DNA of 32,000 bases, taken from Beggiatoa leptomitoformis. Its GTDB lineage: Bacteria > Pseudomonadota > Gammaproteobacteria > Beggiatoales > Beggiatoaceae. Below are positions 21,687 to 26,694 of this stretch, piece by piece. The stretch spans positions 3,888,799 through 3,920,798 of the forward strand of contig NZ_CP012373.2 of NCBI RefSeq assembly GCF_001305575.3, given 5' to 3'. The notes under the pieces were generated by a model. It ran no database searches, was not told the DNA's origin, and saw nothing but the letters and a program-made list of their open reading frames with translations. The position numbers and the translations under genes were made by a program. Numbering within the stretch: position 1 is the first letter of the stretch; every line of letters starts with the position of its first letter.

Positions 21687-22598
21687 TCAAATAGTCTCGC
21701 CCACTGCTGCAAAAGCTGCACGCAATTGTTCAATCTCCGTTGTGTTATACAATCCCTCACGATAATGCTGTATTGCTTCTGCTACGCGATTTAATTGCAA
21801 CAACATCATCACCCGCTCATAATCCCGCCCATCTGCTTGTGCAAGATATAGATAAGATTGATAATTTCCCTTTTCTTTTAAAATGCGCAAATAACGACTA
21901 ATCAACGCATCAGCATCATAAGGTTGATTAGTTTCCTCTGTCGTTGATTCATCCCACATATCCAATTCTGTCTCTTGCCACAAAAGGGTTGTGGTTTCAC
22001 CCTGTAAAATCTGTTGCAACGGCGGATAATCCCAACCAAAGCGAAGCGCATCAATAGCAGTATCAAATACATAAACCATATAATGCACCAATTGTGTTTG
22101 CCAACCTGTTAATTTATTTTGCCATGCTTGACGACTTTTCGCCGATAACGTGGTTTTTAGAAAACTGTCTGCCCATAATTCGCTAACGGCTGATAACAAA
22201 CGAATATAATTTGCCTGTGCGATAAAATCGGTATGGTTGGCTTTATCTTGTGAAATTTTATGAAAAGTTGTAATTGCAATATCCAACGTGCCAAGTGTAA
22301 CCGCTTCTAACACAGCTAATGCAGTCTGCCCTTGTTGCGTGTCTAAATAATGCGGAATCGTGGCTAATAATGCGCTTAAATCACCGCCATGACTGGCTAA
22401 TTGTTGGACTGCACGAACATCAATATGGGCTGGCAATTGTGGCGATTCTTGTACTTGTTCCCCTTGCCACGTATCCAATTGTTTAATAATAACAGATTGT
22501 AATAACGGATATTTTTCAACTAATTGATTTATTAATAAACACAATTGCGTTTTTTCTAACGTAGCTAAACGATTATTTAATAAAGTAACATCAGACAT
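21687..22598 (-). CDS. Hypothetical helical protein (303 aa)
   Basis: The track ORF extends to 22700 into the duplicated promoter region. ATG 22598 (MSDVTLLNN..) with AAAGGA upstream is the likely start. I recognise no motif. Confidence 0.6.
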   Translation of the reverse strand: MSDVTLLNNRLATLEKTQLCLLINQLVEKYPLLQSVIIKQLDTWQGEQVQESPQLPAHIDVRAVQQLASHGGDLSALLATIPHYLDTQQGQTALAVLEAVTLGTLDIAITTFHKISQDKANHTDFIAQANYIRLLSAVSELWADSFLKTTLSAKSRQAWQNKLTGWQTQLVHYMVYVFDTAIDALRFGWDYPPLQQILQGETTTLLWQETELDMWDESTTEETNQPYDADALISRYLRILKEKGNYQSYLYLAQADGRDYERVMMLLQLNRVAEAIQHYREGLYNTTEIEQLRAAFAAVGETI

Positions 22599-22673
22599 AA
22601 AATTATTTCCTTTAATTAATCTTTTAGTCTTATAAAACATATTTTTCACATCATCATAAGCAATAAAGTGTAA

Positions 22674-22830
22674 TGTGATTAATAATGCCGTTTTTTTCAA
22701 TCAAGATAGAACGATAAATGTTAAAAAAGGGCTATATATCGTCATGGAAAGAAACTTGTTTAACACACTCATCATATCGTTAAACAGTGCTATTTATTTA
22801 AATACATTATGCCTACTTTCTTGCTTAAAA
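22674..22830 (+). repeat. Direct repeat copy 1 (157 bp): duplicate of the GGDEF-EAL gene promoter region and its first 7 codons
   Basis: It aligns with 23799-23944 with 5 substitutions and one 11-nt indel (CAAGATAGAAC), counted by eye. It contains ATG 22809 followed by PTFLLK, then diverges to a stop at 22863-22865. Confidence 0.9.
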
Positions 22831-23176
22831 TTTTTCCGTATTTCACGATATGTGTCACGTTGTAGCTAGGGCAATTTAGCATATTAGGGACTCTTTTACT
22901 TTTTCAGTTTTCTTAATTTTAATATCACTGCTTTTTTGCACTATCCAAATAAGAAACTCATATAAAATAACAAGTAAAGAGTCTAACAAGTTAATACTTG
23001 CTAGAATATAATGATTTATTTTCAAGTAACTAAATGACGTTATGTTACTTGCAACAAGCTAATGTTGTGTTCCAGCCTAATACTTTGCCACTGGGCGGTT
23101 TTGCGGCAATTTGAGGTTTCGTGGCGGTAGCAGGGTACGGCTGAACTTAGACGTTATGCTAAAGGAGTAATCGAGG

Positions 23177-23545
23177 TTGTTTTCTGAGCAAACTATTTAC
23201 ATTCAGATAGAAAAAGACTTATTTAGGTTTCTGCATGTGCAAAGCGGAAGAACCGCAAAAATACAGGGTTTTTTCTCAAATCAAAGGCTTGCAATCGCTC
23301 ATTTTATAGTTGCAGAGAAGGCTCTTAAACAAGGAATCTATGAAGTTTATCCAAAATCGTTTTTTCGTCTTTCGCCCATAATAATCATGCACCAAATTTT
23401 TAATTCAGAGGGTGGGCTTTGTGAAATTGAAGAACGAATCTTGAGAGAAGCCGCTTTATCTGCTGGTGCGAGGCAGGTATTTATTTGGCAAGGTCAACCA
23501 TTGTCATCAAGTCAGTTGGAAAACAAGGTATATAAAAAAGCATAA
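23177..23545 (+). CDS. MreB-derived mini-protein (122 aa) lacking the nucleotide-binding motifs
   Basis: TTG start with AAGGAG at 23162-23167. IAHFIVAEKALKQGIYEVYPKSFFRLSPIIIMHQ...EIEERILREAALSAGARQVFIW aligns by eye with E. coli MreB [57 protein letters not shown]. The DLGT phosphate-1 loop and the entire C-terminal half are absent. Confidence 0.6.
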   Translation: MFSEQTIYIQIEKDLFRFLHVQSGRTAKIQGFFSNQRLAIAHFIVAEKALKQGIYEVYPKSFFRLSPIIIMHQIFNSEGGLCEIEERILREAALSAGARQVFIWQGQPLSSSQLENKVYKKA

Positions 23546-23798
23546 CTTAAAGTGTTTCAACTCGCGCACGTCGTGTGCTAGATAGTTTGTAAGTTTTGGT
23601 TTTTCGGCTGATACAGATTCTGGTTAGCTCCACATAACATAGATAATTGCTCTACTTTAAAGAATTTTCTCAGAATAGTAAATATTTTTAACGGGTTATA
23701 AGAGAACTGATATTCTGTCAGGAGTTTACTGTTTATTTGAGCAATAAAGGTGCTGGATGGGTATGCGCTAGAAGACGGACTATGTATATGTGCCATTG

Positions 23799-23944
23799 TG
23801 TGATTAATAATGCCGTTTTTTTCAATGATAAATGTTAAAAAAGGCTTATACATCGTCATGGAAAGAAACTTGCTTAACACACTCATCATATCGTTAAACA
23901 GTGCTATTTATTTAAATACATTATGCCCACTTTCTTGCTTAAAA
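23799..23944 (+). repeat. Direct repeat copy 2 (146 bp): functional promoter and start of the GGDEF-EAL gene
   Basis: See copy 1. It contains the real ATG at 23923. Confidence 0.9.
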
Positions 23945-26694
23945 AATCTTATCTAACCTTAATATTCGTTGCCATTCTTGGCTGTGGTTTGTCTTTCTTT
24001 GCTTTTAATCACACACAAAAATGGGAAGAACAGCAAGTTATGCAAGAAAAAGAGGCTCTACTTGATCACTATATTCGTTTATTACGTCAAGCCTCATTAA
24101 CAGTAGATCAGCTACTCGGCTCTTTGCGCGGGTTATATTCGATAAAACAAAAAATAGAACATGAAGACTTTGCCTTACTGGTTAATCAAGAGCTTTTAAC
24201 GGATTGGATAGTTGGTTTTACATGGTCTCCCTACATTAAAGAGGGGCAACGTGCCGAGATAGAACAACAACTAACGACTTCTTTTTGGCAATATAACAAC
24301 CAACAACAAGCGGTTATTACACCAACGCAGGTAGATTACTATCCGATTCTCTTTGCTGAACCCAAAGAACGTTTTAAAACACTCATTGGTTTTGATGTAA
24401 ACACAGTTTATTCATTCAATTTTTTACACAGCAGTAGTGTATTACTCTCTTTTCAAATGCCACATGGGGCAGAGAAACAGCTACATGTTTTTCTACCTAT
24501 TTATACCGAAGCACTAAAACCCATTGGTTTTTTTACGGCGATATTACAACTCAATACTTTTATTGATGTTCTGCTTCGTCCTGCCAAACAACGCTATGAA
24601 GTTTTTCTTGTTATACGTGACACTCGTTCACCCAATCCACAAAATATCATTTATGCCCCCGATTGGTATGCACAAGATAAGACCTTACAAAATGAAAAGA
24701 ATACTATTCTCAGTGTTCCTATAGAATTTGAAGGGCAACAATGGCGCATTGAATTACACCATCTTCTTGCTGGAACAAGCATTTACTACGCTTATGCGTG
24801 GATGGTTTTATTCATGGGCATATTATTTACAATCGGTTTAACCCGTTATTTGTACGTTGTGCTTAACCACAGTGCGCAAACAGAAATATTAGTAAGTCAA
24901 CGAACACAAAAATTAATTGCTGTTAATCAAACCCTGCATGAAGAAATGCTCGTTCGTGAACAAATGACTACAGCTTTGATTGCCGCAGAACAAAAGTTCC
25001 GCGCTATTTTTGAAAATGCCATTGAAGGTATTTTTCAATGTACCCCTGATGGCGATTTTTTAAGCATTAATCCAGCATTTGCCCGTCTATTTGATTTACC
25101 ACAAGCAGTAAATGGTGACACACAAGTACATTATCGCAAAAACAATTTTTTTCTACATCCATCTGATTATAATGAATATATTATACACCTTACTCAGCAA
25201 GGTGAAGTAAAAGACTATGAGTATCAAGCTATTTGCATTACCAAACAAATTGTCTGGGTTAGTGAAACCACCAAAGCCGTTTATAATGCGACAGGCGAGT
25301 TACAACATTATGAAGGTATTATAGAAAATATTACCGAGCGGAAAAAACAAGAAGAAGAGTTACGCTATGCCGCCTCTCATGACTTGCTTACAGGGCTTTA
25401 TAATCGCAACGCATTTACCGAACGGCTTGCCTATGTACTACAGCAACAACAGGATAAATTTTCTGCTGCCAATCACATCCCCTTTGCCGTACTTTTTATT
25501 GATTTAGACCGATTTAAAATCGTCAATGACAGTATGGGGCATTTAATGGGGGATAAACTGCTTAAACAGATGGCTGAGCGATTAGCAACGACAATACAAC
25601 AGTTTACTGCCATGATTGCACGTTTTGGGGGAGATGAATTTGCCTTGCTAATAGAAGAAATCCCCGATTTGGAGACGTTGGAAACCTATATAGAACAAGT
25701 ACAGCAACAACTTAATCAGCCTTATGAATTAGAAGGGGAAATATTCATAACAACGGCAAGTATTGGCATTGCCCTCAGTGCATCACATTACACCTGTCCA
25801 AATGAGATTTTGCGCGATGCGGACACGGCTATGTATGCCGCTAAAAAACAAGGGTTGGGGAAATATGCGTTTTTTCAGCAGGGTATGCACACACACATTG
25901 TTCATATCATGCGCATGGAGTCAGACCTACGTAAAGCCTTTGAACGTAACGAATTATGTATTTATTATCAACCCATTATTGCACTAGAGAAACAACACAC
26001 CGTTGGATTAGAAGCCCTGATTCGTTGGCAACATCCACAACGTGGGTTAATTTCACCCGATGAATTTATTCCCCTTGCTGAAGAAACGGGATTAATTCAA
26101 GAATTAGGACGCTGGGTTTTTAGCACGGCTTGTGTACAGCTCTATCAATGGCAGCAACGTTATCCACAACATGCCAATTTAGGGATTAATATCAATGTAT
26201 CCCCTATCCAATTTAAACAACCGCGTTTAGTACGTGAGATTCAAGATATTATTGAACGAGCGGGCATTTCCCCGCGTAGTTGCCGTTTAGAAATCACAGA
26301 AAGTGCCATGATGTATAACCCAGAGGAAACACTGAAAACATTGCAAGAACTGAAAGAGTTGGAAGTTCAATTATATATAGATGATTTTGGAACAGGCTAT
26401 TCATCACTGAGCTATTTACAAAAATTTCCCATTGATGCCCTTAAAATAGATAAAAGTTTTATTCGCGATTTAGAAAATGACCCTCGCTCACACCAAATAG
26501 CACAAGCAATTATTGCATTAGGAGAAGCCTTTAATTTAAAAACCATCGCCGAAGGGGTAGAAACGCAACAACAACTTTCTATTTTAAAAATGGCGGGTTG
26601 TCATCATGTGCAAGGATTTCTCTTTTCCCGCCCTCGCCCACTCAGTGATATTGAACAATATTTATGTGCAGAAACCAAATACGACATTATTTAA
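23923..26694 (+). CDS. Membrane sensor CHASE-PAS-GGDEF-EAL protein (diguanylate cyclase / phosphodiesterase)
   Basis: TM helices lie at about aa 10-28 and 288-312, flanking a CHASE-like periplasmic domain (VGFTWSPYIKEGQRAEIEQ, DYYPILFAEP..LIGFDV). PAS: FRAIFENAIEGIFQCTPDGDFLSINPAF. GGDEF: SHDLLTGLYNR, RFGGDEF at aa 567-573, with no RxxD I-site. EAL: GLEALIRW at aa 695-702, DDFGTGYSSL, KIDKSFI. Confidence 0.95.
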   Translation: MPTFLLKKSYLTLIFVAILGCGLSFFAFNHTQKWEEQQVMQEKEALLDHYIRLLRQASLTVDQLLGSLRGLYSIKQKIEHEDFALLVNQELLTDWIVGFTWSPYIKEGQRAEIEQQLTTSFWQYNNQQQAVITPTQVDYYPILFAEPKERFKTLIGFDVNTVYSFNFLHSSSVLLSFQMPHGAEKQLHVFLPIYTEALKPIGFFTAILQLNTFIDVLLRPAKQRYEVFLVIRDTRSPNPQNIIYAPDWYAQDKTLQNEKNTILSVPIEFEGQQWRIELHHLLAGTSIYYAYAWMVLFMGILFTIGLTRYLYVVLNHSAQTEILVSQRTQKLIAVNQTLHEEMLVREQMTTALIAAEQKFRAIFENAIEGIFQCTPDGDFLSINPAFARLFDLPQAVNGDTQVHYRKNNFFLHPSDYNEYIIHLTQQGEVKDYEYQAICITKQIVWVSETTKAVYNATGELQHYEGIIENITERKKQEEELRYAASHDLLTGLYNRNAFTERLAYVLQQQQDKFSAANHIPFAVLFIDLDRFKIVNDSMGHLMGDKLLKQMAERLATTIQQFTAMIARFGGDEFALLIEEIPDLETLETYIEQVQQQLNQPYELEGEIFITTASIGIALSASHYTCPNEILRDADTAMYAAKKQGLGKYAFFQQGMHTHIVHIMRMESDLRKAFERNELCIYYQPIIALEKQHTVGLEALIRWQHPQRGLISPDEFIPLAEETGLIQELGRWVFSTACVQLYQWQQRYPQHANLGININVSPIQFKQPRLVREIQDIIERAGISPRSCRLEITESAMMYNPEETLKTLQELKELEVQLYIDDFGTGYSSLSYLQKFPIDALKIDKSFIRDLENDPRSHQIAQAIIALGEAFNLKTIAEGVETQQQLSILKMAGCHHVQGFLFSRPRPLSDIEQYLCAETKYDII

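Follow-up and report, generated by a model that had tools for sequence, protein, structure and literature searches.

An insertion, which is genuine, old and stable and amounts to a scar of a known kind and not a mobile element, separates two long direct repeats upstream of a GGDEF-EAL gene in Beggiatoa leptomitoformis. The 968 bp between the repeats (22831-23798) are a mosaic of an IS1 scrap and a piece of an integron cassette array and not, as had been supposed in the original prediction, one functional unit. With moderate confidence, we favour the explanation that this cassette-array scrap arrived in a single event of the type called 'insertion with long target duplication' (Nobusato 2000; Furuta 2010). 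All coordinates refer to the window, the whole stretch of 32,000 nucleotides that was analysed.

Anatomy of the locus and its empty site

Pairwise alignment of 22674-22830 with 23799-23944 reproduced exactly the 157- and 146-bp repeats that had been predicted, with five substitutions (a divergence of about 3.4%) and, in addition, one 11-nt indel. A repeat search resolved them into a block of 121 nt at 95% identity (22710-22830 and 23824-23944) and one of 28 nt at 100% identity (22674-22701 and 23799-23826), and the extra nucleotides of the indel lie between these blocks in copy 1 only. The similarity begins sharply between 22673 and 22674 and between 23798 and 23799, and ends just as sharply between 22830 and 22831 and between 23944 and 23945. 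The proposed self-comparison and whole-genome BLASTN of the region (E 2e-56) recovered the repeats and found these two copies alone in the 4.27-Mb genome; they are therefore not a dispersed repeat. Both copies contain the ATG (at 22809 and 23923) followed by the codons PTFLLK, and, as foreseen, copy 1 leads into an 18-codon stub and copy 2 into the 923-aa gene. The product of the latter matched the Pfam families EAL (2.9e-80), GGDEF (3.9e-43), CHASE (8.9e-11) and PAS. The features of the locus are these:

21687-22598, minus strand: 303-aa gene from the list of open reading frames, at the left flank of the insertion site; a core gene, present also in the sister species
22674-22830, plus strand: direct repeat copy 1 (157 nt), a duplicate of the GGDEF-EAL upstream region with the ATG (22809) and first seven codons
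22809-22865, plus strand: stub ORF of 18 codons, the duplicated start codons fused to the antisense of the IS1 fragment (from sequence reading and the ORF list)
22831-22946, minus strand: IS1-family remnant, comprising codons 1-17 of insA (ATG at 22882-22880) and the terminal inverted repeat, whose outer end is at about 22946
22947-23048, plus strand: AT-rich tail (23% GC) of an upstream cassette, into which the IS1 element had inserted; unique in the genome and the fetched loci
23049-23159, plus strand: eroded attC of the upstream cassette, with the R' box GTTATGC at 23153-23159 and a putative crossover after the G of GTT, between 23153 and 23154
23154-23667, plus strand: integron gene cassette, comprising a 5' UTR with its own ribosome-binding site, the 122-aa ORF and attC remains
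23177-23545, plus strand: 122-aa gene (ORF122), with a TTG start, AGGAG 9 nt upstream and a single ASKHA/actin-fold domain
23540-23667, plus strand: decayed attC of the ORF122 cassette, its R'' box GCATAAC (23540-23546) overlapping the stop codon
23668-23798, no strand assigned: stretch of 131 bp up to the right junction, with no match found
23799-23944, plus strand: direct repeat copy 2 (146 nt), which serves as the working upstream region of the GGDEF-EAL gene and contains its start
23923-26694, plus strand: 923-aa CHASE-PAS-GGDEF-EAL gene, the target gene, kept intact by the duplication

In annotation, neither the 18-codon stub nor the duplicate upstream region should be taken for a second gene start: both belong to the scar. 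No Pfam or NCBIfam family matched the 303-aa gene.

An empty site was found in the genome of a sister species of the same genus (G001). There, about 82 bp separate the 303-aa gene from the GGDEF-EAL gene and the repeated block is present once; G001 is a different species and not conspecific, and only the gene-proximal ~90 nt of the repeat can be aligned. The conserved block and the ATG region of G001 align with both repeat copies, and this single-copy site bears out the original suggestion of a duplication-insertion with target duplication. At both sites that G001 allows us to polarise, copy 1 carries the derived base and copy 2 the ancestral one found in G001. The 303-aa gene is 74% identical to its G001 counterpart at the DNA level, a divergence of about 26%.

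The arrangement also withstood reassembly and is not an assembly artefact. It is the same in a second assembly (CP018889.2, from a near-identical genome), with 0 differences over 4369 bp. In a ~99% identical strain from a landfill metagenome, which differs by 0.2-1.5% from the genome analysed here (G000), separate contigs span the left junction (22830/22831) and the right one (23798/23799), and the structure is stable in two lineages. No excised or empty-site joints were seen in landfill and wastewater contigs, a kind of evidence that cannot reveal rare forms.

The left end of the insert is the terminal 116 bp of an IS1-family element whose interior is severed exactly at 22831, inside insA. 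About 20 IS matches in the genome all begin at this position, and full copies run some 660 bp further inward past it. The genome holds 11 full-length and about 20 fragmentary IS1 copies. The full copies are 774 bp long, have inverted repeats GGTAGTGCTAAAGA and 8-bp target duplications and match the InsA zinc ribbon (PF03811, 30.5 bits) and DDE_Tnp_IS1 (PF03400, 83 bits) families of Pfam, which places them in the IS1 family as defined by a length of ~770 bp, terminal inverted repeats, two genes in two frames (insA with a zinc ribbon and insB with DDE_Tnp_IS1) and a duplication of 8-9 bp. The piece in the window is only 83-84% identical to every resident copy. Because the left junction falls inside insA and the IS terminus is internal to the insert, this junction was not made by a transposase. 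No microhomology is visible there in comparison with the IS copies and copy 2.

The ORF list and Pfam searches revealed no recombinase ORF within 22831-23798 or its flanks. The original prediction of a spacer with no recombinase was correct in this respect but missed the 17 insA codons on the minus strand. An Rfam scan of 22000-24500 at E ≤ 1 returned nothing, which means that the supposed leader corresponds to no known RNA, and neither GC content nor GC3 distinguishes the insert from its host. Screening the genome for further unique pairs of long direct repeats yielded five candidates, and none of the three that were compared with G001 had a simple empty site.

A decayed integron cassette and its MreB-like gene

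Positions 23153-23593 share 80-82% nucleotide identity with cassettes in the loci L017-L025 and L046-L049, and at least six different metagenomic arrays, all with canonical attC sites, contain this cassette. Homology with 10 or more independent copies starts at 23146-23154, at the GTTATGC box, where each of the other loci shows the R' end of a different, well-formed attC. The neighbours differ among L017, L018, L019, L020, L021, L024 and L048, which marks the sequence as a discrete module, that is, an integron cassette. Global alignment to the other cassettes extends weakly as far as about 23667. On either side, 22947-23152 and 23594-23798 are shared by no family genome and no metagenome locus, and 23668-23798, possibly the start of the next cassette, matched nothing in the genome, relatives or fetched loci. 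A search for the donor array found no database sequence with the insert's flanks beyond the cassette.

Both attC sites scored weakly in our arm-pairing test, a crude home-made energy measure with a genomic background. The arms of the upstream site pair at −3.6 kcal/mol, whereas 17 bona fide sites have a median of about −9 and the background lies at −1.7 ± 2.6, and its fold is no better than those of shuffled sequences. This eroded attC of the adjacent cassette is what the original prediction had read as a structured leader, which shows that an apparent structured leader can be a dead attC site. In the attC of the ORF122 cassette itself, the R'' box and the 5' half are conserved and the 3' half has diverged, with no intact R' and no hairpin. 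Foldable pairing of R'' with R' and of L'' with L' was not found (z from −1.2 to +1.1 against shuffles), arm pairing reached 0 to −5 kcal/mol, weaker than the approximately −9 of bona fide sites, and a search for the missing 3' half downstream of 23594 gave scores at shuffle level. Judged by these sequence features, the ORF122 cassette is a fossil. RNAalifold on a MAFFT alignment of the 17 bona fide sites returned no consensus pair, and a regex and ungapped-pairing attC scan, applied genome-wide and beside the intI remnant, either lacked specificity or yielded no sites. This frameshifted remnant (C1:325337-326079), about 3.6 Mb from the insert, is the sole intI in the genome.

ORF122, the only intact ORF in the insert, is a real gene, as had been proposed, and is a relative of MreB domain I and, more remotely, of YjaA. 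Its homologues fall into 589 clusters at E ≤ 1e-3, MreB proteins match it both in the PDB (4cze, E 5e-4) and in all family genomes, and its AF2 model (pLDDT 94) has MreB as its best Foldseek matches. This homology to MreB and YjaA is real but family membership is not: the NCBIfam YjaA profile (NF041448) matches at E 1.4e-15 with 57.4 bits, below its cutoff of 125, and Pfam MreB_Mbl (PF06723) with 15 bits, below its cutoff of 27. Within the same bacterial family, longer relatives (163-191 aa) exceed the PF06723 cutoff. No close homologue occurs in the 54 other family genomes, where the best match has 43% identity. A predicted complex of ORF122 with MreB scored 0.00, the same as controls, which neither supports nor counts against an interaction.

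The dN/dS values of ORF122 (0.03-0.12) and its differences from the landfill strain, of which four out of four are synonymous, point to strong purifying selection, and a gene kept in this way would therefore be used by its host. More broadly, widespread single-domain MreB/YjaA-like mini-proteins travel as integron cassettes. We considered and rejected a general association of ORF122-like genes with GGDEF-EAL genes: one homologue adjoins a PAS-GGDEF-EAL gene, and the neighbours of the other homologues are unrelated.

No consensus sigma-70 site was found in the duplicated segment. The only sigma-70-like match on the plus strand, CTAACA-18-TATAAT at 22983-23012, lies within the AT-rich cassette tail, and ORF122 might be expressed from either this site or copy 1. 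It is plausible that ORF122 and the GGDEF-EAL gene are co-regulated from the duplicated upstream region. A bolder proposal, which we consider distinctly unlikely, is that the target duplication domesticated a promoterless cassette, such that the resident gene stayed intact, ORF122 came under a second copy of the control region with read-through into the GGDEF-EAL gene, and selection kept its co-expression with the c-di-GMP sensor. If this were true, cassettes in general could leave integrons through insertion with long target duplication, without any recombinase, and become fixed, expressed chromosomal genes.

Origin of the insertion

We infer that one illegitimate recombination event put a foreign fragment of about 970 bp behind the seventh codon of the GGDEF-EAL gene. 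In doing so it would have made a second copy of the ~146 bp before this point, which span the upstream region, the ATG and seven codons, as a result of which the gene stayed intact. The fragment would have come at random from an integron cassette array of another bacterium, after an IS1-family element had invaded that array. It would comprise 116 bp from the outer end of the IS, the tail of one cassette with its attC, a further cassette that is complete (that of ORF122) and another 131 bp. The event would be later than the split from the sister species and earlier than that from the landfill strain, after which both attC sites and repeat copy 1 may have drifted as purifying selection held ORF122. 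Lacking its own means of moving, the insert could presumably leave only by RecA-type recombination between the 146/157-bp repeats.

The features that define insertions with long target duplication are largely present: the insert is bracketed by unique direct repeats of more than 30 bp (146/157 nt), a related genome, although of a different species (G001), has a single-copy insert-free site, and no mobility gene or mobile-element end explains the junctions. Restriction-modification cargo, a criterion of the published screens and not of the mechanism, is missing. The class name is only descriptive because its mechanism has never been shown experimentally. The genome has no Ku gene and classical end joining is therefore not available, which counts against the explanation we favour, as does the lack of any database match to a donor array, and the repeat divergence of 3.4% plus an indel could equally reflect two copies from two lineages.

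Such a dual ancestry is the core of a possible but unlikely alternative, homologous import from a donor lineage that already had the IS1-cassette block upstream of its GGDEF-EAL gene. Import might have occurred by a Campbell-type single crossover of a small circle or by homology-facilitated illegitimate recombination in transformation. Incoming DNA would have reached from inside the IS to inside the gene, with an anchor of ~150 bp recombining homologously on one side and illegitimate joining on the other, and copy 1 would be the recipient allele and copy 2 the donor allele. The repeats, at 146-157 bp, are about as long as the minimum anchor reported for homology-facilitated illegitimate recombination. 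The divergence between the copies exceeds the 0.2-1.5% between G000 and the landfill strain, as expected of two alleles, and the absence of Ku favours RecA-dependent routes. However, import requires a prior, unexplained insertion in the donor at exactly 23798/23799 and is thus less parsimonious, the ancestral state of copy 2 and derived state of copy 1 at both polarisable sites fit drift of a redundant copy at least equally well, and no such donor arrangement turned up in 55 family genomes or the metagenome loci.

It is improbable that the arrangement is ancestral to the genus and that the empty site is an excision product, left when the sister species lost the insert by recombination between the repeats. 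Although repeats this long are substrates for RecA-mediated deletion and the attC sites and IS fragment look old, repeats that predate the species split should differ far more than 3.4%, given the ~26% divergence of the flanking gene between G000 and G001, unless they had been homogenised, and a close ORF122 homologue occurs nowhere else in the family. An ancestral arrangement would in any case alter only the date of the insertion and not its mode of origin.

The IS1 sequence directly at the left junction, the many resident IS1 copies and the observation of IS-centred duplications in the laboratory (PMC11708052) raise the possibility that IS1, alone or as a composite with cassette DNA, transposed into the gene, lay at the centre of the duplication and later suffered an internal deletion. 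We regard this as quite improbable: the IS terminus (~22946) points into the insert and is at neither junction, the junction itself cuts insA, the identity of only 83-84% to every resident copy indicates that the fragment does not stem from the active family, and at least one extra deletion ending exactly at the repeat boundary would be required.

The direct repeats had also been compared with an att-site duplication by an integrating element, and IntI, of which the genome holds a pseudogene, is known to insert cassettes outside integrons, at secondary (attG) sites (bioRxiv 10.1101/2022.09.11.507474). Site-specific integration of either kind is nevertheless highly improbable. Within or beside the insert there is neither a tyrosine/serine recombinase gene nor a short identical core at both ends; the repeats copy the target and not the element, and the ends are arbitrary, one inside IS1 insA and the other in unassigned sequence. 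The ends also differ from the attC crossover point at 23153/23154, recombination of attC with attG makes no 150-bp target duplication, and the intI remnant is frameshifted and far away. Because the cassette both begins (23153/4) and ends (23593 or later) within the insert, an integron integrase did not make the junctions either. Finally, a falsely duplicated or collapsed repeat, for which nothing speaks beyond the general risk of assembling repeats, is practically negligible, since the copies differ at five sites and an indel, the contigs spanning both junctions come independently from a strain diverged by ~1%, and the second assembly is identical.

Comparison with known systems

Like YjaA of Escherichia coli (NF041448), ORF122 belongs to a length class of ~125 aa, and the YjaA profile match spans its residues 6-100. 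Its single RNase-H-like actin subdomain superposes on domain I of MreB. Unlike MreB, ORF122 has no second domain and therefore no nucleotide-binding cleft, and unlike both proteins it is carried on an integron cassette.

Cassettes and attC sites that occur without an integron integrase are known as CALINs and SALINs (Cury et al. 2016, PMC4889954; Loot et al. 2023, bioRxiv 10.1101/2022.09.11.507474); IntegronFinder defines an integron by an intI beside the array and a CALIN by at least two callable attC sites without intI. The insert resembles these in being a chromosomal cassette far from a working intI, beside a transposable-element remnant, near a resident promoter region and probably expressed. 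It differs from a CALIN in that both attC sites are eroded and probably not callable. It differs from an attG insertion in that its ends are neither attC nor attG crossover points, and IntI therefore did not place it. The target duplication of ~150 bp is no feature of CALINs or attG insertions.

In Pseudomonas fluorescens, a complete IS481 copy was seen experimentally between very large duplicated segments and was readily lost (Ngan et al. 2024, PMC11708052). Both cases have foreign or mobile DNA exactly at the junction of a tandem duplication and lack the normal short target-site duplication; here, however, the IS is a 116-bp stump with an internal terminus, the duplication is 146 bp long and the structure has been stable in two lineages.

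The closest likeness is to insertions with long target duplication, in which unique direct repeats of 30 to ~420 bp flank DNA without a mobility gene and a relative has the empty site (PMC2853133). The locus shares with them a short insert (<20 kb) with no mobility gene of its own, slightly diverged unique repeats and a single copy at the empty site of a relative. In the published cases the cargo consists of restriction-modification gene units, whose enzymes were suspected by the authors of playing a part (Nobusato et al. 2000, Gene 259:99; Furuta, Abe and Kobayashi 2010, PMC2853133); here it is cassette-array scrap and an IS1 fragment with no nuclease gene. In a further difference from those cases, the duplicated target includes the start of a gene and so preserves the gene. 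The locus would thus extend this poorly understood class from restriction-modification units to integron cargo, and offers a clean, datable case in which a piece of a cassette array appears to have become a fixed, selected chromosomal gene without integrase or transposase action at its junctions.

Direct repeats and the empty site

The observation in the original prediction, that the 5' end of the GGDEF-EAL gene is repeated on both sides of a small cargo gene (ORF122), is confirmed as written. A repeat search recovered the two copies as a 121-nt block at 95% identity and a 28-nt block at 100%, and pairwise alignment gave the five substitutions and single 11-nt indel that had been counted by eye, with sharp limits on both sides. 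Both copies contain the ATG and the codons PTFLLK; copy 2 is the start of the 923-aa CHASE-PAS-GGDEF-EAL gene, which the duplication leaves intact, and copy 1 runs on into a stub of 18 codons that ends at 22865. As also described, 968 bp separate them, and by BLASTN the two copies are the sole occurrences in the complete 4,265,317-bp genome.

Features of the region (window positions)
21687-22598, (-), 303-aa gene, left flank
22674-22830, direct repeat, copy 1
22831 to ~22946, (-) for insA, IS1-family remnant: inverted repeat and first 17 insA codons, the terminal 116 bp
22947-23048, 23% GC, no match in the genome or the fetched loci
23049-23159, eroded attC of the preceding cassette
23177-23545, (+), ORF122
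23668-23798, no match in the genome or the fetched loci
23799-23944, direct repeat, copy 2
23923-26694, (+), GGDEF-EAL gene

Over 4369 bp around the site the window shows no difference from a second assembly, that of a near-identical genome (CP018889.2), which is not independent evidence. Such evidence comes from a landfill metagenome strain differing from the window at 0.2-1.5% of positions, in which separate contigs (22769-23630 and 23639-23903) bridge both junctions and carry the same repeat differences as the window. The arrangement is thus real and stable, and we rate assembly error as its origin below both of the readings weighed in the last section. No contig joining the flanks without the insert was found in the landfill metagenome, whose contigs drop rare variants and so are silent on rare excision.

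A comparison with relatives, proposed earlier as a check, revealed an empty site in the sister species (genome G001), the only other species of the genus compared. There the 303-aa and GGDEF-EAL genes are divergent neighbours ~82 bp apart, and the region has the conserved block (ATGGAAA-GAACTTGCTTA) and the start MPNFLLKK once each. Two repeat differences can be polarised with this outgroup, and at both of them the ancestral base is the one in copy 2, copy 1 being derived. A close relative of ORF122 is absent from all 54 other genomes of the family. An ancestral arrangement whose insert was lost in the sister species likewise ranks behind the two readings weighed below. Divergence between the repeat copies (3.4%) falls between that of the landfill strain (0.2-1.5%) and that of the flanking gene between the two species (~26%), so the event dates to after the split of the species and before that of the landfill strain.

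Composition of the insert

Matches to the insert occur at about 20 places in the genome, each beginning exactly at 22831. All of them are ends of an IS1-family element 774 bp long, which has inverted repeats of GGTAGTGCTAAAGA, is flanked by 8-bp target duplications and carries two ORFs, one for an InsA zinc ribbon and one for DDE_Tnp_IS1. The genome carries 11 full-length copies at 96-100% identity, each with 8-bp target duplications (for example 1862517-1863290 on C1, the contig carrying the window), one copy split by another insertion and ~20 decayed fragments (for example C1:3887794-3887830, just upstream of the window). The piece in the window is 83-84% identical to every resident copy; its terminus faces the inside of the insert, and the junction with copy 1 truncates its interior.

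Positions 23153-23593 are 80-82% identical to DNA of many metagenome contigs, which carry proteins at 84-89% identity. On these contigs each relative of ORF122 is one of a series of small ORFs, all on one strand and separated by canonical attC sites (R'' xxxTAAC, R' GTTAxxx and paired L boxes with extrahelical bases), and its neighbours differ from contig to contig. Homology to the window starts at 23146-23154, at a GTTATGC box; at this point a different attC ends in each of the other loci. The sequence from 23154 onward is therefore an integron gene cassette, with 23049-23159 being the attC of its predecessor. The latter region had been read as a structured leader, which we do not uphold: it matches no Rfam family and folds no better than shuffles.

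Of the cassette's own attC, the 5' half and R'' (GCATAAC, which overlaps the stop codon) are retained; the 3' half can be made out only in global alignment, to ~23667, and neither an intact R' nor a predicted hairpin was found in this site. In a crude arm-pairing test, bona fide attC sites collected from the metagenome arrays (n = 17) had a median of ~-9 kcal/mol and random genomic AAC...GTT pairs averaged -1.7 +/- 2.6, with the upstream attC at -3.6 and that of the ORF122 cassette between +3.2 and -5.1 kcal/mol. Both sites in the window are fossils. The genome's only integron integrase lies ~3.6 Mb away (C1:325337-326079, loci L026 and L027; TIGR02249) and is a frameshifted or partly deleted remnant whose match is split between two frames, with 251 bits for positions 2-213 in one and 51 bits for positions 275-315 in the other; methylase-like and restriction-like ORFs adjoin it, with no obvious cassette array.

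Within the decayed attC, 1 nt at 23638 is missing from the landfill strain and four letters are added between 23630 and 23623, a rearrangement (23623-23639) that fits relaxed constraint on a relic site. In two other arrays (L017:1353 onward and L024:2858 onward) the ORF122 cassette's attC is interrupted, immediately after CAGTTTGTAAG, by a group II intron, a placement that is the habit of attC-targeting class C introns. The intron's 5' end is GTGTGCC..., the L017 copy has an ORF with RVT_1 and GIIM domains (reverse transcriptase), and it is at this position that the window's similarity to the other arrays falls off steeply.

The cargo gene and its expression

ORF122 (122 aa) begins with TTG, carries AGGAG 9 nt before it and belongs to a large protein family (589 clusters at E<=1e-3). 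Its description as MreB-like was correct: residues 39-109 match MreB of all genomes of the bacterial family, the profile of its protein family matches PDB MreB 4cze (E 5e-4), the top Foldseek matches of its AlphaFold2 model (pLDDT 94) are MreB structures (TM ~0.6 over the query), and longer relatives (163-191 aa) pass Pfam MreB_Mbl at profile positions 3-128. A match to the NCBIfam 'YjaA family stress response protein' (E 1.4e-15) is below the family cutoff. The modelled single beta-beta-beta-alpha-beta-alpha-beta domain is predicted to be one actin-fold subdomain, without the nucleotide cleft; a predicted complex with host MreB received no support. Strong purifying selection is indicated by dN/dS values of 0.03-0.12 against cassette homologues and by comparison with the landfill strain, where all four differences are synonymous and the non-coding parts of the insert differ by ~1.6%.

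In genomes G062, G017, G013 and G043 of the same family (L035-L038), 163-191 aa proteins passing MreB_Mbl correspond to MreB domain I alone and have varied neighbours (a CHAT protease with a TPS-domain protein, a methyltransferase, a hydrolase); they make up a wider family of truncated-MreB mini-proteins. On a 1.26-Mb metagenome contig (L014:2601-5372, the same locus as L050), a 67% identical homologue lies directly downstream of a PAS-GGDEF-EAL gene, outside a cassette array. This second, independent adjacency to a c-di-GMP gene is probably due to chance because the neighbours of other homologues are unrelated.

Integron cassettes are normally promoterless. ORF122, with its own RBS, could be transcribed from any promoter in copy 1 or from a sigma-70-like site (CTAACA-18-TATAAT, 22983-23012), the only consensus match on its strand in a region with fewer such matches than shuffles. 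No consensus promoter was found within the repeat; its position and the block conserved with G001 are what suggest that a promoter was duplicated. Since a terminator-like site is absent after ORF122, read-through into the GGDEF-EAL gene would be possible.

Origin of the structure

Neither junction lies at an IS terminus or an attC crossover point, and a recombinase is absent, so the junctions were not made by transposition, by integron recombination or by site-specific integration. The earlier interpretation is supported in part: an insertion that duplicated its target stands, and att-site duplication by an integrating element does not. The insert looks like a random piece of a foreign chromosome in which a cassette array had acquired an IS1 relative. 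We lean, by a little, towards a one-step insertion with long target duplication, which has been described in several bacteria, most of them naturally competent, with restriction-modification units as the inserted DNA (PMC2853133, also citing Nobusato et al. 2000). Homologous import, with a ~150-bp segment as anchor and a donor lineage that already had the block upstream of the gene, would account for the 3.4% repeat divergence and fits a genome in which no Ku gene was found, but it presupposes a prior insertion that is itself unexplained, no donor was found, and we consider it unlikely. Lower still we place an IS1-driven event like the experimental IS481 case (PMC11708052) and an integrase-mediated attG insertion (bioRxiv 10.1101/2022.09.11.507474).

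Five further direct-repeat pairs on C1, outside the window (93-358 nt, 90-97% identical, bracketing 0.6-4 kb), may be more scars of the kind described here.

Further repeat pairs on C1, each unique in the genome
2829152-2829309 and 2831886-2832042
2809769-2809959 and 2814054-2814243
547301-547658 and 551429-551783
90348-90446 and 91008-91105
334642-334734 and 335534-335626

An 824-aa gene lies within one pair, and a 180-aa protein that looks secreted within another; the three pairs compared with G001 have no simple empty site there. Inside the 824-aa gene, 1.35 kb (L053:2541-3889, C1:2830540-2831888) is 96% identical to G001:C2:2028479-2029822, with flanks at 74-83%, which points to a recent event between the lineages, either exchange or gene conversion.

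Insertion with long target duplication is a published class, and the scar described here shares its kind, just as its stray cassette resembles the published stray cassettes termed CALIN and SALIN. The scar is ordinary yet well resolved, and its cargo gene is selected; what is new is that the cargo is a scrap of an IS-invaded cassette array and that the target duplication copied a gene's 5' end.
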